This document shows positions 22,881 through 32,871 of a DNA stretch of 64,000 nucleotides, piece by piece. The position numbers and the translations under genes were made by a program. Below the pieces are notes generated by a model. The model searched no databases. It saw only the letters and a list, made by a program, of their open reading frames with translations, and was not told where the DNA came from. The stretch is from Candidatus Cloacimonadales bacterium (GTDB lineage: Bacteria > Cloacimonadota > Cloacimonadia > Cloacimonadales > JAFGVF01): contig OY762964.1 in NCBI GenBank assembly GCA_963667035.1, positions 640,001-704,000 of the forward strand, given 5' to 3'. Every line of letters starts with the position of its first letter. The stretch's first letter is position 1.

Positions 22881-23176
22881 AATAATGTCCTTTATGAATG
22901 TAATTCAATTAACGGTAAAGTCAATATCTTTTACTAAATAGAGGATTTAATGTTTGTTGTCAAATAATAATTGGAAGCTGCCCTCCGATTAACATAATTA
23001 TGTATATCCAATAAATAATTATTGTCCATAAGGTGATTGATAGGTGTAAATTAGATTTTACACACTTATAAGAATACTCCCTATAATTCGACCCACTGTG
23101 GGGCCGATTCCTCTTTTATATAGTTTCCATGCACTTCGTACATGGTTACTCATATTTAATCCCCTTGGGATTAGCA

Positions 23177-23437
23177 AAATGAATCCTTGATTTAGTGGAT
23201 AGTAGGTAAACAACGAGATCTTTAGAAGTTTTTGCCGAAAGTGCAAGAATGTTTCAATCCTTGATTTAATGGATAGTTGGTAAACAACTGAATATCCGGA
23301 ACTAACTATGTTTCAGTTAATAGCGTTTCAATCCTTGATTTAATGGATAGTTGGTAAACAACCCTTGTTGTGGCAAGCTCGTCATTGCTCCCGAATTTGG
23401 TTTCAATCCTTGATTTAATGGATAGTTGGTAAACAAC
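23177..23437 (-). CRISPR. Orphan CRISPR mini-array: four 38-bp repeats, three spacers (36, 36, 37 bp)
   Basis: GTTTCAATCCTTGATTTAATGGATAGTTGGTAAACAAC at 23251, 23325 and 23400; degenerate copy at 23177. The minus-strand repeat ends ATTGAAAC, and an AT-rich leader lies to the right. Confidence 0.92.
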
Positions 23438-23885
23438 TCATATTCTCACGTATATATTTAATTATCAGATAATTACAAAGAAATCTCAGAACTGAATATC
23501 TGATAAAATCATGTGTGCTGATGCATAAAATACATCGGAATTTGCTTCTCGGGAACACGTAAACACTCTATAATAAAGGTCAAGGAGCAGATTTCTATCA
23601 ATTAAGCAATAATTTTGCCTCAGGAAAGATAAAATCAATTTAATATTTATTTCCTAATCAGTAATTGTCAATCAAAATATATTGTTAAAACATGCTCTTC
23701 CGAATTGTTCTGTCTTCAAATAGCTACTCTAATCTGAATTAATGGGAGGTATTCCTTTAACCGATTAACTGCATTTTATCAACTATATAATCCATAAAGA
23801 CACCGGTCTCTATTAATGATATTATATCATGTAGTTTACGTAGTCTTTTTTTTGGTAAAACTTTGACCTCCCTAGGGTGGATACT

Positions 23886-24340
23886 TTTAAGGGTGACTCG
23901 CCAATTGAATGAACATATCATGAACCTTCTACGCCCCTTCTGCAATACTGTTAAAGACATAAGAATTTCTATGGTGAAAGTTATCCACACGATGTGGACA
24001 ACTTTGGCGTTCGCCAAGGAGGGTCCAAGGAGGCTCCTTGGTGGATCCAATCCGGTTCCAATGTCTTTAGAAGTCGCCCTAAAGGATGGTAGAAGGATGA
24101 TAATAGTGGGTGATAATAGGATAATAGCAAGATTTTTGAGGTATAAATGCACTACAATTGTACTGCAACTCCCCTGAGTTGCTGTGACGACGCAGTCGGC
24201 AACTTCCATAGACGGATGCAAAAGAGCACAATTCTGTCTTTAGATCTGTATTACACAGTTTGTATATACTAATATACTGACACGATCAAATTCCTAATCA
24301 GAGTTCTTTGAACTATGTGCAAGTGAGGGTACTTGCACTA
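23886..24340. ncRNA. Candidate large structured non-coding RNA, family unassigned
   Basis: At least 7 complementary helices, including long-range pairs (23952-60/24061-69, 23925-32/24089-96, 23890-98/24072-80). More GC-rich than its flanks; no credible ORF. Confidence 0.45.
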
Positions 24341-24557
24341 CATATCATGCATCGACGAAGAAGACTCATTCTAAATAGCAGAGATTAGTAATAAAGGAGA
24401 GCCTTAACGCTAACTTTTAATCACATTCTATTATACTATTATTGGTAAGAAATTATAATTATATTGACTTAAAATTATTATTACCTATATTTGACACATA
24501 CAATTCATTTGGGTCAAAGATACCTTAATGTATTAGTACCATATTAAGGAGGCTATT

Positions 24558-27500
24558 ATGTCTAGAGTAATGCTTGTAGTAGCACTACTTATCTCACTTA
24601 CTGTGCTTTTTGCATCTGAGACAGTTCTAAGCAACTTGTTAAATGCAAATGACTATCCTTTCGAAAATTCACAATATGGTATGCAAAGAAACATCGAGGA
24701 AAAGACAGGACATTCCTTAGAGATTGATGCGAATAGGGTCTTCGCAGATGGCACATCTCCTAACAGGAACAAGAATGTCAATCCCGTGTTATACGGTTCC
24801 ATCGCTTTAGGAAACTCAGTATACATGGGAACAACAAAAATCATCTCTTATAATCAGTATAATGAAAAAAACATCTATTACATTTCAAGTAATGGAGATT
24901 TCAATATACCTTATGACACTAATGAAGTTTTAAAAATAGAGTTTCAACATGATTCCTGTGATTTCGAAAATGTCAGGATGACTGTTAACACTTCCGGTAT
25001 TAGCTCTAATATAAGCTTAGGATCTATTCAGCTAAGAGAGAATGTTGATAGATTACTTAAAGTTCCAATTGATTATCAGGATATTCAAACAGCAATTGAT
25101 TGTATACAGAATGGAGGAACTGTAGCAGTATATCAAACAATGTATCCATATCAAGTGGATTGCCTATCGTGGAGAGATAAGCATATAAGATTAGTCACTA
25201 ATCAGGCAGCTCCAGCCACATTAACAAGTAGTACTCATGCTATAAGATTGGACTGGGAAGGCATAGATAACAGTGATACTATTGAAGGCTTTATCTTTGA
25301 TGATTGCACAAATTGTAACACGGAACCAGATAGTTATGGACTTGCTATAGCACTGGAGAATGGATCATCTCCTAAGGTCAAGAACTGTACATTCAGTGAT
25401 AACTATTTAGAATTCCTTTCAGGAGTTACACCAAACTTACAATTACTTCAAGGTGCAGGATGTGCTGTTACAATTGAAGGTGTTGTAAATCAGACGAATA
25501 CTCCATTGTTCACTAACTGTACCTTTATAGACAACTTCGCAGGTAATTCATATGGTGGAGCAGCTATAGGATTATTGGGACAAGCGTCGTTTGATAATTG
25601 TGTGTTTGAGAATAATCAATGTATGCAAAACAATGGTGCTGCTAGTACAGGTGGTGCTATATATATTAATAGTAGTAACTGTCCGGGAGTTATCAAATTC
25701 AAAGACTGTGTGTTTGAAGATAATTATGCAGATGGAGGTGTTAATGACATAGACCTGATAAAATGCCAGGATATTAGCACTTTTATTATTGATGATTGTA
25801 GTTTCACAAGAACCTCCTCAGCTATACCATCTGCAACCGGAGCTTCAAGTATTAAGTTGATAAAACATAATCCTGACGGTACTTTATTATACTATCACAA
25901 TATGTCCATCTCAATGAAACGAAACGTTTTCACTAATTACGATTGTGGAATAGTTGACTTTTATGATAATGCAGGGAATTCAAGTCTTGAATTCAAAAAC
26001 AATATTATTGATGGATGTGAAGATTATGGGTTCTACTTGGATTACTACGGTGGAGCAACAACGAATCCGGGATATTTCAAGTTTACCAACAATACATTCT
26101 TAAATATTGATGGAGATGGGCTTATCTTAGATTGCGGTGATACATACGAAGTGCAAAATAATATCTTCTCAAACATAACCGGCTACGGTATAAAATGGGG
26201 AATTGGTGGTAATTATGCTACAGAAGAGTTAGATATAAACTCATGTGTGTTCTTTGCTAATACCCTTGGTAATTGGGATTCGAATGGAGCTAATCATACT
26301 TTAACTCAAAATAACATAATTGAGTTAAATCCTCAATTGGATGCAAACTATGTACCAGTATGGAGTAGTTCGATTAAATCACCTTGTATCAATGCCGGAG
26401 TACCGGATTTGGATGGTGATGGTGTTCTCTGGTATGATGAAGAAATTTATGATGGGAACGGTAATCTGTTATCAGACCCTGATGATAGAGATATTGATTT
26501 ATCTCGTAAAGATATCGGAGCTAAACCACTCATAAACAATATTGAGAATAGTGTGTTAGAAATGCACGCAGGATGGAACTGGTTATCTTTGCCCGGTGTG
26601 GACGCATTGTCAACAGGAACTGTTCAGATTGATGGTATCTCATATAACTTAAATCAAGCAAGATATGTTTTCGGTGAACAAGTAAGTCCGGTAAATCTAT
26701 TTAACATTGTTTATGGCTATCTCGATAGGATTCTTTGGAATTTTACAGAAGAAGGAAGCATTCAATTTAACGTTAACTATTGGGTAGGTTTAACACATTC
26801 AGTAACTTCTCCGAAAGGATACAAAGTAAGACTTAGAGATTATGTTCCCGGAACAGTTAAATTAGAGTTTGATGGTTTCAAAGCGGGTTCTACTGGTAAC
26901 TCTGATACTATGATCCCTTTGTATGCTCCGAGGGAAGGACAAACTTCTACAACAACTCTAGCAGGTTACTATTACAGGGAAAGTCAAACGATTCATGAAG
27001 CTATCCCTGCAAATATACTACAGAATGTTTCTTGTATAAAAACTCAGGATTGGTTTGCTGCAAATCTGTCTTATCTTAACACACAGGGAATGTATGGTAA
27101 AACTACTTGGTTGCATTCATCAGGAGTAACCGGAGAGATAGAACTACGCTATGGTGATGCTGTTGAAATTGTTTATACAGGTACTGAAGATGTTTCTTTT
27201 GCCTGGGAACCTGCAAGTAGTGGTGGAAATTCCAATCCATATTATGTCCAGACTCCAACTTGCTTCACTTATGAGGAACAAAAAGGATATTTACCATTGA
27301 TAATTGAAATTGATATGGATGAATATGGGGAAGGTGATAAACCAATAGAAATAGCCATTTTTGTAAACCAAGAGTGTAAAGGTGCTTCTGTGATTAAAGA
27401 TGATATGGTTCTACTTAAAGCTTATGTTGTTGATGACCCTTCGTTGATTGGAGAGGAGTTAACTTTCCAATTAGCGTTTGATAACAAAAGTTCTAAGAGA

Positions 27501-27914
27501 AAAAGAATTAGTGAATATGCTGTAATGGATAAAGAGGAAGGAAGGTTTGTTACAAAATCTTTTAGAATTAATAATGAGTATGACTTTGCATATATCTCAT
27601 TAAAAGAGGACGACGTAGAATCCGGAGCAGTGCCAGCTTCAGTAAAACTATGGTCAAATTATCCTAATCCTTTTAATCCAACCACAACAATAGCTTATGA
27701 TACAGTAAAAGAAGGAAAAGTTGTTCTGGATGTTTACAACATAAAGGGACAAAGAGTAACAACCCTAGTAAATGAAACAAAACAACCAGGTCGACATACT
27801 GTTGTTTGGGATGGTAAAGATTCATCTAGAAAGCCGGTAGCATCAGGTGTATATTTTTATAAGTTAAAGACAAAAGATAAAGTCTTGACAAATAAAATGA
27901 TGCTATTGAAATAA
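24558..27914 (+). CDS. Secreted right-handed beta-helix protein with C-terminal FlgD-Ig/T9SS-type domain
   Basis: Signal peptide; IQTAID, NCTFxDN repeats, SPCINAG; NYPNPFNPTT..SGVYFYKL..KMMLLK. Confidence 0.85.
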   Translation: MSRVMLVVALLISLTVLFASETVLSNLLNANDYPFENSQYGMQRNIEEKTGHSLEIDANRVFADGTSPNRNKNVNPVLYGSIALGNSVYMGTTKIISYNQYNEKNIYYISSNGDFNIPYDTNEVLKIEFQHDSCDFENVRMTVNTSGISSNISLGSIQLRENVDRLLKVPIDYQDIQTAIDCIQNGGTVAVYQTMYPYQVDCLSWRDKHIRLVTNQAAPATLTSSTHAIRLDWEGIDNSDTIEGFIFDDCTNCNTEPDSYGLAIALENGSSPKVKNCTFSDNYLEFLSGVTPNLQLLQGAGCAVTIEGVVNQTNTPLFTNCTFIDNFAGNSYGGAAIGLLGQASFDNCVFENNQCMQNNGAASTGGAIYINSSNCPGVIKFKDCVFEDNYADGGVNDIDLIKCQDISTFIIDDCSFTRTSSAIPSATGASSIKLIKHNPDGTLLYYHNMSISMKRNVFTNYDCGIVDFYDNAGNSSLEFKNNIIDGCEDYGFYLDYYGGATTNPGYFKFTNNTFLNIDGDGLILDCGDTYEVQNNIFSNITGYGIKWGIGGNYATEELDINSCVFFANTLGNWDSNGANHTLTQNNIIELNPQLDANYVPVWSSSIKSPCINAGVPDLDGDGVLWYDEEIYDGNGNLLSDPDDRDIDLSRKDIGAKPLINNIENSVLEMHAGWNWLSLPGVDALSTGTVQIDGISYNLNQARYVFGEQVSPVNLFNIVYGYLDRILWNFTEEGSIQFNVNYWVGLTHSVTSPKGYKVRLRDYVPGTVKLEFDGFKAGSTGNSDTMIPLYAPREGQTSTTTLAGYYYRESQTIHEAIPANILQNVSCIKTQDWFAANLSYLNTQGMYGKTTWLHSSGVTGEIELRYGDAVEIVYTGTEDVSFAWEPASSGGNSNPYYVQTPTCFTYEEQKGYLPLIIEIDMDEYGEGDKPIEIAIFVNQECKGASVIKDDMVLLKAYVVDDPSLIGEELTFQLAFDNKSSKRKRISEYAVMDKEEGRFVTKSFRINNEYDFAYISLKEDDVESGAVPASVKLWSNYPNPFNPTTTIAYDTVKEGKVVLDVYNIKGQRVTTLVNETKQPGRHTVVWDGKDSSRKPVASGVYFYKLKTKDKVLTNKMMLLK

Positions 27915-27925
27915 TAAATGATTCA

Positions 27926-27957
27926 AGGGGTAGCCTCTACGAGTCTACCCCTTTTTT
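27926..27957 (+). terminator. Intrinsic terminator
   Basis: AGGGGTAG..CTACCCCT followed by a T-run. Confidence 0.7.
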
Positions 27958-28007
27958 GTTAAACTTTTTACTATTTATAAGCTGATTACTGATAATAAGT
28001 AGGTTTT

Positions 28008-30428
28008 ATGAACAGGCTATTTTTGTTAATGATACTATGTATAAGTATTACTTCAGTTCATTCAATAGTAAGAGAAGTATCTGTTGACGGAACTCAACAA
28101 TATACTTCCATCCCATTGGCAATATCCGAATCAGTAGATGGCGATACAGTTCTCGTTCATCCGGGAAGATATACGCAACATATTGATGTTATGGAGAGGG
28201 AGATAACTCTTCTTAGCATGTATTATTATTCTCAGAATAGGGACGATATTCACAATACAATCATAGATGCTAATTTTGAATCCAATTGTCTCAGAGTAGA
28301 GAATCAAGGTATTGCTACTGTAAATGGTTTTACTTTCACAAATGGAGTAGGTTTTCGTCGTTCAACTAATAATTCATTAGGAGGTGGAATTTCATTAAAT
28401 GATGACAGTGAGTTAAACTTATTCAATAGTATTGTTATAAACAATGAGGCGGATACCGGAGGTGGAATTCTCAGTGATAGCTATAGCACACTTAGATTGT
28501 ATGGGAATGTTATCAAGGATAACCGAACAAGAAATCAAGCCGGTGGAGTAAGTTCTTATCTTTCAACTATATACTTTGATCAAAGTAACTTAAATAGTAT
28601 ATATGATAATATTGGGCAAATCCATGATATTTTTCTTTATACTTCAACTTGTGAACAAGTCTTATTAGATACACTCAGCGTTGATTTATCAGAGTGTGAC
28701 GGTTGTTTTGTATCTTATTATTCTGCTAACGAGGAGCTCTATCCAGAGCCTTCAATCAGTAATATACATAGTGTGTTAGAACAAGTTGATTCCGATATAT
28801 ATGTGTCTCCTTGGGGAGATGACTCTAATAGTGGTCTAACCCCCGAAACTCCTATGAAGACAATTGCATACGCAACAAGAAGAATACAACCTAACATCAC
28901 TAATCCTAACACGGTATATCTTCTTCCCGGTACTTATAGCACTGAAACAAACAATCAGTTCTTTCCGGTGGCCTTACAATCAAACACAAATCTACTCGGA
29001 TTGGGAGATTCACCGGATGAAATCAATATCGGGGAAGAATGGGGTTACAACACTATTTCAGTTAATAATGCTAGCAATATTGAGATAGGTAATTTTACTA
29101 TGAGAAAAAACAATCAGTATGACCATTATGTTTTACCAATTGGGTTTAGTCAGAATATAAACATTCATGATATAAATTTTGTTGAGTCAAGGACAAATTT
29201 TCCTGGATTATTAATAATACTATCAAATGGAATCAATGTCAGCAATTGCACTTTTTCAAACCTCACAAACACTGAATATATACAAAGTATATCCACTTAT
29301 ATAAGTGAAGTAACTCTTAACAATCTAATCTTTACCAATATTAGCAGTACAGCTTATTACGGTCTTGTATCGGTAATGGATTTTGATGACAGTATTGTTA
29401 ATGCAAACAATATTATCGTAACCGATTGCTATCAAGAAGAGTCTGGTGTTATGGTGCAATACTCAAATATCGAATGTGACTCTCCCGGTGGAGGATTAAA
29501 TCTCAATAACTTCCTGTTTTATAATAACACTTCTACTTGTAATAGACAACCATTAATAATAATAGTTAACTTTTATGAACCAAGTTTCATAAACAATGCA
29601 ACAATTGCTAACAATATAGCTCCTACGAATGTACTAAGATTCTTAGGTGATTACACAGTTAGAAACAGCATAATGTATAATCCTAGTGCTTCCGGTGAAA
29701 TACGTGTTTGGGATGGTTTTACCAGTGATGACGAATCTTTTTATTCAGATATTGATATTGATTATTGCTTAATCCGCAATGGCTTTGATGGAATTGGAGG
29801 AATCAATAATCCTCATAATGTATTAGATTGGGGAGAAAACAATTTAGATACAGATCCACTCTTCCGAGGTGATGTATATGGTGATTGTGACCTTGAAGAT
29901 ATCGAATGGGTGCAACTGACTCCTGATTCTCCATGTATAAATGCCGGAACTCCCGATACTTTAGGAATGGGATTACCTGCATTTGATGTAATAGGCAATC
30001 CACGAGTATGGGATGGAATCGTAGATATAGGAGCATTTGAATACAATCCCACCCCTAATGATGGACATGTTCTTCCAACTCCTCCATCCTCAATAACACT
30101 TACACACTATCCTAATCCGGTTAACATATCAAAGAACGGATGTGCTTTCATTGACTTTACACTTCCCAAGAGACCTGTAGAAAAACCTAAGTTAGAAATC
30201 TACAATATAAGAGGTCAAAAGGTTAGAGATATAACAATAACTCAAAGTCTATCAGAACTTGTGCGTGCAACAGGCTTATCTAAAGAAGAGAATCAATCAG
30301 GAGAGAAGTACTCATTAATATGGGATGGCAAAGACAATTCAAGAAAGAAAGTCTCTTCCGGAATATACTTCTATAAGATTAGCTCTGAAGGTAAAAGTGT
30401 TGTTAATAAGATGATGGTTGTTAAGTGA
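28008..30428 (+). CDS. Secreted DUF1565-like beta-helix protein with FlgD-Ig/T9SS-type C-terminus, copy 1
   Basis: YVSPWGDDSNSGLTPETPMKTI, SPCINAG, VDIGAFEY, YPNP..SGIYFYK. Confidence 0.85.
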   Translation: MNRLFLLMILCISITSVHSIVREVSVDGTQQYTSIPLAISESVDGDTVLVHPGRYTQHIDVMEREITLLSMYYYSQNRDDIHNTIIDANFESNCLRVENQGIATVNGFTFTNGVGFRRSTNNSLGGGISLNDDSELNLFNSIVINNEADTGGGILSDSYSTLRLYGNVIKDNRTRNQAGGVSSYLSTIYFDQSNLNSIYDNIGQIHDIFLYTSTCEQVLLDTLSVDLSECDGCFVSYYSANEELYPEPSISNIHSVLEQVDSDIYVSPWGDDSNSGLTPETPMKTIAYATRRIQPNITNPNTVYLLPGTYSTETNNQFFPVALQSNTNLLGLGDSPDEINIGEEWGYNTISVNNASNIEIGNFTMRKNNQYDHYVLPIGFSQNINIHDINFVESRTNFPGLLIILSNGINVSNCTFSNLTNTEYIQSISTYISEVTLNNLIFTNISSTAYYGLVSVMDFDDSIVNANNIIVTDCYQEESGVMVQYSNIECDSPGGGLNLNNFLFYNNTSTCNRQPLIIIVNFYEPSFINNATIANNIAPTNVLRFLGDYTVRNSIMYNPSASGEIRVWDGFTSDDESFYSDIDIDYCLIRNGFDGIGGINNPHNVLDWGENNLDTDPLFRGDVYGDCDLEDIEWVQLTPDSPCINAGTPDTLGMGLPAFDVIGNPRVWDGIVDIGAFEYNPTPNDGHVLPTPPSSITLTHYPNPVNISKNGCAFIDFTLPKRPVEKPKLEIYNIRGQKVRDITITQSLSELVRATGLSKEENQSGEKYSLIWDGKDNSRKKVSSGIYFYKISSEGKSVVNKMMVVK

Positions 30429-30450
30429 TATCTGATAATAAGTAGGTTTT

Positions 30451-32871
30451 ATGAACAGGCTATTTTTGTTAATGATACTATGTATATGTATTACTTTAGT
30501 TCATTCAATAATAAGAGAAGTATCTGTTGACGGAACTCAACAATATACTTCCATCCCATTGGCAATATCCGAATCAGTAGATGGCGATACAGTTCTCGTT
30601 CATCCTGGAAGATATACGCAACATATTGATGTTATGGAGAGGGAGATAACTCTTCTTAGCATGTATTATTATTCTCAGAATAGGGACGATATTCACAATA
30701 CAATCATAGATGCTAATTTTGAATCCAATTGTCTCAGAGTAGAGAATCAAGGTATTGCTACTGTAAATGGTTTTACTTTCACAAATGGAGTAGGATTTCG
30801 TCGTTCAACAGATAAATCATTCGGAGGTGGAATTTTATTAAATGATGACAGTGAGCTAAACTTATTCAACAGTATTGTTATAAACAATGAGTCAGATACC
30901 GGAGGTGGAATTCTCAGTGATGGCCATAGCACACTTAGATTGTATGGTAATGTTATCAAGAACAACCGAACAAGAAATCAAGCCGGTGGAGTAAGTTCTT
31001 ATATTTCAAATATATACTTTGATCAAAATAACTTAAATAGTATATATGATAATATTGGACAAGTACATGATATTTTTCTTTATACTTCAACTTGTGAACA
31101 AGTCTTATTAGATACACTCAGCGTTGATTTATCAGAGTGTGACGGTTGTTTTGTATCTTACTATTCTGCTAACGAGGAGCTCTATCCTGAGCCTTCAATC
31201 AGTAATATACATAGTGTGTTAGAACAGGTTGATTCCGATATATATGTGTCTCCTTGGGGAGATGACTCTAATAGCGGTTTAACACCCGAAACTCCTATGA
31301 AGACAATTGCATATGCAACAAGAAGAATACAATCTAACATCACTAATCCTAACACGGTATATCTTCTTCCCGGTACTTATAGTATTGAAACAAACAATCA
31401 GTTCTTTCCGGTAGCCTTACAATCAAACACAAACCTACTCGGATTGGGGAATTCATCGGATGAAGTCAATATCGGAGAAGAATGGGGATGTAACACTATT
31501 ATAATAAGTTATGCAAACAATACTGAGATAGGATACTTCACTATGAGAAAGAGTAACTTACATGGTCATGATGTTTTGTCAATTGGGTTTAGTCAGAATA
31601 TAAACATTCATGATATAAATTTTGTTGAGTCAATAACTACTCATCCAGGCATTGGAATTAGTCATTCATATTCAATTAATGTTAGCAACTGCACTTTTTC
31701 AAACCTCACAAACACTGAATACTTACAAAGTCTATTCACTTATATAAGTGAAGTAACCCTTAACAATCTAATCTTTACCAATATTAGCAGTACAGCTTAT
31801 TACGGTCTTGTATCGGTAATGGATTTTGATGACAGTATTGTTAATGCAAACAATATTATCGTAACCGATTGCTATCAAGAAGAGTCTGGTGTTATGATGC
31901 AATACTCAAATATCGAATGTGACTCTCCCGGTGGAGGATTAAATCTCAATAACTTCCTGTTTTATAATAACACTTCTACTTGCAATAGACAACCATTAAT
32001 AATAATAGTTAACTTTTATGAACCAAGTTTCATAAACAATGCAACAATTGCAAACAATATAGGTCCGACAAGTGTACTAAGATTCTTAGGTGATTACACA
32101 GTTAGAAACAGCATAATGTATAATCCTAGTGCTCCCGGTGAAATACGTGTTTGGGATGGTTTTACCAGTGATGACGAATCTTTTTATTCAGATATTGATA
32201 TTGATTATTGCTTAATCCGCAATGGCTTTGATGGAATTGGAGGAATCAATAATCCTCATAATGTATTAGATTGGGGAGAAAACAATTTGGATACAGATCC
32301 GCTCTTCCGTGGTGATGTATATGGTGATTGTGAGCTTGAAGATATCGAATGGGTGCAACTGACTCCTGATTCTCCATGTATAAATGCCGGAACTCCCGAT
32401 ACTTTAGGAATGGGACTACCTGCATTTGATGTAATAGGCAATCCTCGTGTATGGGATGGAATCGTAGATATAGGAGCATTTGAATATAATCCCACACCTA
32501 ATGATGAACATGTTCTTCCAACTCCTCCATCCTCAATAACGCTTACACATTATCCTAATCCGGTTAACATATCAAAGAACGGATGTGCTTTCATTGACTT
32601 TACACTTCCTAAGAGACCTGTAGAAAAACCTAAGTTAGAAATCTACAATATAAGAGGTCAAAAGGTTAGGGACATAACAATAACTCAAAGTCTATCAGAA
32701 CTTGTGCGTGCAACAGGCTTATCTAAAGAAGAGAATCAATCAGGAGAGAAGTACTCATTAATATGGGATGGCAAAGACAATTCAAGAAAGAAAGTCTCTT
32801 CCGGAATATACTTCTATAAAGTTAGTTCTGAAGGTAAAAGTGTTGTTAACAAGATGATGGTTGTAAAGTGA
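30451..32871 (+). CDS. Secreted DUF1565-like beta-helix protein, tandem copy 2
   Basis: Same length (806 aa) and near-identical to 28008-30428. Confidence 0.85.
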   Translation: MNRLFLLMILCICITLVHSIIREVSVDGTQQYTSIPLAISESVDGDTVLVHPGRYTQHIDVMEREITLLSMYYYSQNRDDIHNTIIDANFESNCLRVENQGIATVNGFTFTNGVGFRRSTDKSFGGGILLNDDSELNLFNSIVINNESDTGGGILSDGHSTLRLYGNVIKNNRTRNQAGGVSSYISNIYFDQNNLNSIYDNIGQVHDIFLYTSTCEQVLLDTLSVDLSECDGCFVSYYSANEELYPEPSISNIHSVLEQVDSDIYVSPWGDDSNSGLTPETPMKTIAYATRRIQSNITNPNTVYLLPGTYSIETNNQFFPVALQSNTNLLGLGNSSDEVNIGEEWGCNTIIISYANNTEIGYFTMRKSNLHGHDVLSIGFSQNINIHDINFVESITTHPGIGISHSYSINVSNCTFSNLTNTEYLQSLFTYISEVTLNNLIFTNISSTAYYGLVSVMDFDDSIVNANNIIVTDCYQEESGVMMQYSNIECDSPGGGLNLNNFLFYNNTSTCNRQPLIIIVNFYEPSFINNATIANNIGPTSVLRFLGDYTVRNSIMYNPSAPGEIRVWDGFTSDDESFYSDIDIDYCLIRNGFDGIGGINNPHNVLDWGENNLDTDPLFRGDVYGDCELEDIEWVQLTPDSPCINAGTPDTLGMGLPAFDVIGNPRVWDGIVDIGAFEYNPTPNDEHVLPTPPSSITLTHYPNPVNISKNGCAFIDFTLPKRPVEKPKLEIYNIRGQKVRDITITQSLSELVRATGLSKEENQSGEKYSLIWDGKDNSRKKVSSGIYFYKVSSEGKSVVNKMMVVK

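Follow-up and report, generated by a model that had tools for sequence, protein, structure and literature searches.

The window analyzed here is a stretch of 64,000 nt of DNA from a Candidatus Cloacimonadales bacterium. The interval of interest, 23886–24340, lies beside the leader of a CRISPR mini-array, and the first gene on its high-coordinate side encodes a β-helix protein sorted by type IX secretion (T9SS). The features of this part of the window are as follows (window positions, with the strand in parentheses).

23177..23437 (-): CRISPR mini-array, four repeats of 38 nt, the low-coordinate one degenerate; weak match to CRISPR-DR7
23438..23749 (-): leader of the mini-array, ~310 nt, near-identical at four of five loci, at which the spacers differ
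23671–23642 (-): promoter-like site pointing into the array; hexamers 10/12, a consensus match only
23750..23904 (-): remnant of an insertion sequence (IS), the 5'-terminal 155 nt of a 1390-bp IS, recognized by own-genome matches; decayed, transposase-proximal end
23876–23903: terminal inverted repeat of the IS, within the remnant
23905..24102 (+): element B, a hairpin-shaped interspersed repeat; 10 copies in the genome with 82–95% identity
23905–23946 and 24075–24102: outer arms of B, enclosing a 128-nt core (23947–24074)
23981..24001 (no strand assigned): conserved palindrome of B, TTATCCACA, 3 nt, TGTGGACAA; two convergent DnaA-box consensus sites
24015..24063 (+): 11-nt tandem-repeat tract of B, CAAGGAGGGTC-like units; holds the hairpin CCAAGGAG/CTCCTTGG of the earlier note discussed below
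24103..24147 (+): right-hand extension of B, common to 5 of the 10 copies in the copy alignment
24148..24342 (-): one REP unit of ~195 nt, matching tandem units of ~197 nt at genome 852.6–854.0 kb
24317–24341 (-): GTAG-tagged palindrome ending the REP unit, GTAGTGCAAGT-N6-ACTTGCAC, with 0 mismatches
24464..24491 (+): promoter-like site upstream of the T9SS-sorted β-helix gene; hexamers 10/12, a consensus match only
24558–27914: gene for the T9SS-sorted β-helix protein (Pfam Beta_helix and Por_Secre_tail)

Three large secreted proteins (1118, 806, and 806 aa) with β-helix and FlgD-Ig/type IX secretion sorting domains are encoded in a row at 24558–32871, and the two genes for 806-aa proteins look like a tandem duplicate.

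An earlier note on this DNA, made from the letters of the window, had read the interval as a single large structured RNA of ~450 nt: an ornate noncoding RNA, a ribozyme, or an RNA relic of a mobile element, possibly linked to the CRISPR array. The helices on which that reading was built are all present in the sequence, and the following complementary segments were found.

23916–32 with 24089–102, and 23952–60 with 24061–69
23890–98 with 24072–80, including one G-T pair
23977–89 with 23993–24005, 24004–08 with 24013–17, and 24025–32 with 24034–41
24165–71 with 24176–82, 24177–84 with 24197–204, and 24317–24 with 24331–38

Comparison with dinucleotide shuffles likewise went in favor of the note, the stretch folding better than chance on both strands (z of -3.3 to -4.3). 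The minimum free energy of 23880–24110 (+) was -76.1 kcal/mol, compared with -58.8 ± 4.7 kcal/mol in 200 shuffles, none of which was as good (z = -3.70); the opposite strand gave z = -3.56. For the whole 455 nt, z was -3.32 (+) and -4.25 (-), and 0 of 100 shuffles folded as well. A scan of the window with Rfam 15 at gathering score yielded nothing but four tRNAs, and at E ≤ 10, hits in 23400–24600 were limited to the CRISPR repeat and to two matches at chance level that lie outside the interval. Hence, no Rfam family matches the interval even at this relaxed cut-off, be it one of those that the note had named as candidates (6S, group I/II introns, HEARO, ROOL, GOLLD, and OLE) or any other.

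The interval 23886–24340 beside the CRISPR leader is a patchwork of four unrelated dispersed repeats, mostly mobile DNA, and a single large RNA is not supported. A BLAST search with a 466-nt query of the region against its own 3.1-Mb genome gave 51 matches, and a wider query (23700–24560) gave 55 alignments, which fall into separate sets with sharp borders. These sets define four modules, each with its own copy number and its own borders.

23750–23904: module A
~23905–24102, reaching 24160 in some copies: module B
24148–24201/24224: module C
24302–24342: module D

Short-read contigs from two DNA-type runs of one sample, when aligned to the region, end at module borders, including 23903–23906, where the loose contig ends run into the flanks of other copies. 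Three joints were seen as well, each in a single contig and at low depth. Summed read depth is ~10 in the unique flanks, rises to ~150 (about 15-fold) over 23815–23936, and is ~35–55 over B. The low folding energy described previously arises because the stretch consists of inverted-repeat DNA elements.

Module A is the end of an IS. The 155-nt sequence has 21 matches in the genome, six of which belong to full-length copies of 1390 bp that are 98.9–99.8% alike; these have inverted ends of ~27 bp and, at no fewer than three of the six, direct target duplications of 15 bp. The transposase is encoded by one ORF, which matches Pfam HTH_32, HTH_28, and rve_3 above cut-off and rve below cut-off. We take the IS to be IS481-like (DDE/rve transposase), going by the features of that family. 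In the window, only the terminal 155 nt are present, ending at 23904. The terminal repeat contains AGGGTGACT (23890–98), one side of a helix that crosses another and that the earlier note had put forward as a possible pseudoknot; the “pseudoknot” therefore pairs the IS with its neighbor. It does not support a fold of one RNA, as it joins the IS terminal repeat with B and the IS end is found on that side in only 5 of the 10 B copies.

The mini-array is an orphan and belongs, as a satellite, to a type I-B system encoded at another genome site. Its 38-nt repeat occurs at five genome loci with 4, 4, 3, 2, and 1 copies, those outside the window being at genome 758.8, 1785.1, 1863.0, and 1950.2 kb. 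A type I-B cas set comprising Cas6b, Cas8b, Cas7, Cas5, Cas3, Cas4, and a Cas1 split by a stop is located at genome 1.942–1.950 Mb and is adjoined by a single copy of the repeat at 1950170, as expected for a type I-B repeat; no gene of this set lies within the window. Three of the five mini-arrays have the IS remnant joined directly to their leader, in each case at the position corresponding to 23749/23750. Element B lies near a mini-array at 3 of its 10 copies, always by way of the IS remnant and, in one case, in inverted orientation. The proposed link between the interval and the array thus comes down to adjacency, and the idea of a functional connection between B and CRISPR was dropped.

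Some further observations concern the arrays. The 155-nt IS end fused to the leaders likely carries the transposase promoter; it may have dispersed the mini-arrays and may also drive them. Just past the degenerate CRISPR repeat lies another dispersed repeat of ~90 nt (window 23086–23174), with about 10 copies in the genome, one of which is about 100 nt from a Y1_Tnp match (genome 379301–379645 and 379743–379822).

Modules C and D together correspond to 24148–24342, one unit of a REP family that bears the GTAG tag and is accompanied by a gene for a RAYT-like tyrosine transposase. The GTAG palindrome occurs 19 times genome-wide, 18 times outside crude ORFs, in keeping with REP sequences. The tandem array of REP units encloses a 204-aa ORF (genome 853186–853800) that matches Y1_Tnp with 27.9 bits (cut-off 23), with REP copies at 852690, 852887, and 853084 on one side of it and at 853797 on the other, the arrangement expected of a RAYT gene. 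The stems that the earlier note had seen at 24165–24204 and 24317–38 fall inside this unit. GTAG-tagged REP families with RAYT genes are described in PMC3733652 and PMC3333891.

Element B accounts for most of the remaining helices. It occurs in 10 full copies in this genome according to nhmmer. BLAST against 41 relatives up to the order level detected B in one congener besides this genome and otherwise gave just a 24-nt match. A covariance model built from 29 copies recovered the 10 copies here and 72, 44, and 35 copies in the three other genomes of the genus, and it gave no match in any of eight genomes from two sister genera in the family. Public contigs that match B are titled as Candidatus Cloacimonadales and Candidatus Zophobacter. 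The architecture is constant across subfamilies and consists of an arm, a spacer of ~20 nt, the palindrome, four to five tandem 11-nt units, and the other arm. The arms are complementary, variable in sequence, and ~30–45 bp long, with CTAC...GTAG near their ends; the core is better conserved than the arms. At the window copy, a 12-nt direct repeat (24095–24106 and 24108–24119) spans into the extension. With its size of about 130–200 nt, its complementary arms, its lack of coding capacity, and its 10–72 copies per genome, B looks like a miniature inverted-repeat element (MITE). In this genome, eight of the 10 copies lie outside crude ORFs, and the other two lie inside ORFs made of the repeat itself; in the congener, all 25 copies examined lie between ORFs.

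The interval could in principle encode a protein, as two ORFs are open in the window, one of 104 aa (23863–24177, +) and one of 154 aa (23757–24221, -). Neither matches a Pfam family, both cross the borders of unrelated repeat modules, and any given reading frame of B is open in at most 9 of 48 copies. We give this reading practically no credence.

The pairing within B was assessed using 48 copies. In the arms, each of the 14 pairs shows changes in both partners, with 79.7% of cells being paired. In the inner hairpins, 63–68% of cells are paired, and the middle pairs are broken in about 30 of the 48 copies. These counts show that only the terminal inverted repeats and the conserved sequence palindrome hold as structure in B. 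The inner hairpins of the earlier note are thus present at their coordinates; they lie in the 11-nt repeats of B and are not conserved across subfamilies.

These data bear on the possibility that B is a multicopy structured small RNA, in which the arms would form a closing helix and the purine-rich, GGAGG-like repeats would serve as a binding platform (e.g., for ribosomes or an RNA-binding protein). The folding z of -3.7, the compensatory changes in all 14 arm pairs, and the higher conservation of the core compared with the arms all fit such an RNA. On the strand shown, the arm pairs comprise 89 G-T cells versus 41 A-C cells, which also points toward RNA; the asymmetry is weak, much of it stems from one inherited pair, and a strand-specific hairpin of single-stranded DNA would give an excess as well. 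However, DNA elements with terminal inverted repeats show the same covariation as RNA arms, and the helices that hold across subfamilies are just these arms and an invariant palindrome, which retains a mismatch in 35 of 48 copies. Other subfamilies do not keep the inner hairpins but do keep the 11-nt period, which is a measure of the DNA helix. No Rfam family matches, the copy in the window lies upstream of both flanking promoter-like sites, and no terminator-like site was found. The orientation of B is unbiased relative to genes: among the 25 congener copies examined, those whose flanking genes both run in the same direction are co-oriented with them in four cases and opposed in seven (orientations derived by hand). 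Taken together, this makes a small RNA very unlikely.

As to the interval as a whole, a single ornate RNA or ribozyme of ~450 nt is not supported, given the four independent modules, the absence of Rfam matches, and the inner hairpins that other subfamilies do not conserve. The alternative wording of the earlier note, a mobile-element RNA relic, was right in spirit as regards the origin in mobile elements, and the evidence points to DNA elements rather than RNA. The apparent ornate fold would be that of inverted-repeat DNA elements folded as if they were RNA: the closing helices would come from the long terminal arms of B, the central hairpin from its invariant palindrome, and the inner hairpins from chance complementarity inside its 11-bp tandem repeats.

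The near-invariant palindrome of B reads AAGTTAT[C/G]CACA-N3-TGTGGATAACTT. The consensus for DnaA boxes is TTATNCACA. Across 49 copies, the right half of the palindrome is a perfect TTATCCACA in 36 and fits TTATNCACA in 38, and the left half fits TTATNCACA in 36, with variation mostly at the degenerate fifth base. Although the palindrome is essentially invariant, 35 of 48 copies have a mismatch at its central pair, which is kept because the left half varies at that fifth base. Both sequence and context support reading the palindrome as a pair of putative DnaA boxes. The genome contains 57 perfect TTATCCACA 9-mers, 11 of which are in B copies. The match to dnaA (2.822 Mb) is flanked by two of them, one 413 nt before the start and one 583 nt past the end, and the densest cluster has five within 220 bp (genome 2569070–2569283), plus near-variants. 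This cluster was considered as a candidate oriC and dropped, as it lies away from both the GC-skew minimum (0.13 Mb) and dnaA (2.822 Mb).

The identical 25-nt palindrome is present at 120 or more loci in a species-level genome collection, with 111 of the matches listed being outside the lineage according to record titles, and at 52 viral loci. The 150-nt flanks of these loci contain 164 further consensus boxes for the genomes, among the matches listed, versus ~1.1 expected, and 73 for the viruses versus ~0.5 expected. In a few of these loci, the DnaA boxes themselves repeat every 11 nt. A regular-expression search gave no further copies of the palindrome that are linked to genes.

The tandem units beside the palindrome keep their period while changing their sequence. 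In 49 copies, identity is 0.60 at a lag of 11 nt and 0.54 at a lag of 22 nt, compared with 0.18–0.32 at other lags. The unit in the window is CCAAGGAGGGT, and other subfamilies have TAGGGAGGGTC, ACTAAGAGAGT, CCACGGGAGGC, or CCCGAGAGATT.

One possible explanation for this combination is that B copies are DnaA-binding modules with an effect at the level of the host. Scattered through the genome, they would serve as sinks for DnaA or as loading sites resembling an origin, with DnaA assembling from the two high-affinity boxes onto an 11-bp array in phase with the DNA helix. Such a role would be compatible with B also being selfish DNA. The fit of both palindrome halves to TTATNCACA, with variation concentrated at the degenerate fifth position, speaks for it, as do the TTATCCACA sites on both sides of dnaA, the five-box cluster at 2.569 Mb, and the extra boxes, some in an 11-nt period, among which the same palindrome sits elsewhere (at least 120 genome loci and 52 viral loci). 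However, the 11-mers of B are not DnaA boxes by sequence, a transposase or some other dimeric protein could just as well recognize the palindrome, and the difference between 10 copies here and 72 in the congener argues against a dosage-critical role. We consider a host-level role of this kind rather unlikely.

The distribution of B across related genomes suggests a mobile element. Of 20 congener loci tested, two could be matched to this genome by collinear flanks, and the element is missing here at both. These two “empty” sites measure 64–67 bp in this genome versus 438–504 bp in the congener, with spacers too diverged to align or to give exact borders. One locus carries B in both species. B therefore shows insertion polymorphism of the kind expected of a MITE (two loci at which it is absent and one common to both). 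At the common locus, identity is 89% over the inner ~90 nt, compared with 77% in the neighboring gene, and this higher conservation of the core could mean selection rather than homogenization among copies. For most of the 20 copies, the left and right flanks map far apart in this genome, often at synteny breakpoints between the species.

No direct repeats that could represent a target-site duplication were evident at the flanks of the B copies inspected. BLAST and nhmmer searches of its own genome for an autonomous parent IS gave only the 10 copies and short fragments, and the IS adjoining B has ends that differ from those of B. As to a mobilizing enzyme, none of the 13 Y1_Tnp matches here and the 14 in the congener adjoins B, the nearest being about 2 kb away. 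With neither a target duplication nor an autonomous parent found, it is from its distribution that we infer the mobility of B. The element is multicopy and intergenic, its number of copies varies from species to species, and orthologous sites may have it or lack it; we read it as a MITE/REP-like selfish element. It would be moved in trans by some enzyme that recognizes the conserved palindrome and/or the termini of the arms.

The contact between B and the IS in the window is one instance of a wider pattern. An IS terminal repeat is found near all 10 B cores, at 44–47 nt (the outer arm end) in eight and at 107–109 nt (past the extension) in two. The junctions involve either side of B and either end of the IS and are of at least four types. 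With blastn-short, 33 IS-end-like sites were found in the genome, 11 of which are within 150 nt of a B core, compared with a chance expectation of ~0.005 per core. At two of the junctions, the IS is full-length and its duplications are intact, so there it arrived after B. The IS end was looked for and not found in the congener with 72 B copies. From these positions, we infer a preference of the IS for the ends of B rather than a dependence of B on the IS; the ends of B being a preferred landing site would explain why the IS end abuts B in the window. By eye, the right arm of B agrees with the IS terminal repeat at about 15 of 22 positions, which raised the idea that the arm derives from that repeat; this was dropped, as the congener copies lack the likeness and that genome lacks the IS end. 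Tandem 11-nt runs of other subfamilies (TCTCCCGTTGC-like and TCCCGAGTGAT-like) also adjoin IS ends, at genome 202.5 kb and 1619.7 kb, and the IS may also land beside B-like fragments that the covariance model missed.

The nearest described counterpart of B is BrickBuilt of Porphyromonas gingivalis (PMC4596501), a MITE that holds a minisatellite, with 19 copies, 23-nt repeats, and an invariably intergenic location. BrickBuilt and B are both small, noncoding, intergenic, and multicopy elements with a narrow host range and with inverted ends around a tandem repeat. They differ in that the repeats of B are 11 nt long rather than 23 nt and vary between subfamilies, and in that B has an invariant double DnaA-box palindrome and arms of ~30–45 bp, with neither a parent IS nor a target duplication found for it. 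Pneumococcal BOX elements, modular mosaic repeats that form stable stem-loops when transcribed (PMC3049150), resemble the region as a whole in being a patchwork of short modules that folds into stem-loops; the region differs in having no sequence relationship to BOX and in drawing its modules from different classes (IS, B, and REP).

The REP/BIME/REPIN sequences and their RAYTs (PMC3333891, PMC3733652, and PMC3337134) are matched by 24317–24341, which has the GTAG tag, is intergenic and multicopy, and has relatives that flank a Y1-transposase gene. Like them, B forms a long hairpin from a pair of inverted arms, and it carries CTAC...GTAG close to the ends of these arms. It departs from these descriptions in the reversed order of the tetranucleotides (5'-CTAC...GTAG-3') and in the 128-nt conserved core between the arms. 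In contrast to REP/RAYT pairs, the 14 Y1_Tnp matches of the congener all lie at least about 2 kb from the B copies listed.

The IS elements IS1397 and ISKpn1 and some members of the IS110 family target REP/BIME palindromes. The IS described here is similar in that it is found at a fixed place relative to B, at 10 of 10 copies and with four or more junction types. Unlike those elements, it is an HTH-rve IS with 15-bp duplications and sits at the outer arm ends instead of in the loop; its targeting is deduced from positions. In E. coli, DnaA boxes are clustered in oriC, which has arrays with 2-bp spacing, and in datA. B resembles these clusters in having consensus DnaA boxes beside an array with an 11-bp period, and it differs in being dispersed in 10–72 copies, in having 11-mers that are not recognizable as boxes, and in having no replication genes linked to it.

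Considering all the evidence, we put the probability at roughly 80% that the interval consists of inert repeats situated upstream of a diverging pair of promoter-like sites and that B is a MITE/REP-like selfish element that serves as a landing pad for the IS. The interval would then be a junkyard of repeat DNA between the two promoter-like sites, with no RNA gene in it. Within this reading, the IS remnant and the REP unit are ordinary, and element B is a modest curiosity. The case also carries a caution: nested inverted-repeat DNA elements yield a strongly negative folding z and apparent covariation without any RNA gene, and the copy number in the element's own genome is the fastest way to recognize them.

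What makes B distinctive is that it is restricted to one genus, that nothing in it is invariant except two consensus DnaA boxes beside phased 11-bp repeats, and that it attracts an IS to its ends. Our literature searches turned up no account of DnaA boxes in a MITE or REP element and, for Cloacimonadota repeats, nothing describing element B. A more specific form of the selfish-element reading is that B mimics an origin, with the convergent boxes nucleating DnaA onto the 11-bp array and the copies acting as DnaA sinks or spreading via DnaA or fork structures. We regard this form as quite unlikely. If it were true, the same property would make the ends of B an insertion hot spot for the IS, and if DnaA binds the B copies, these would be a mobile source of DnaA titration sites.
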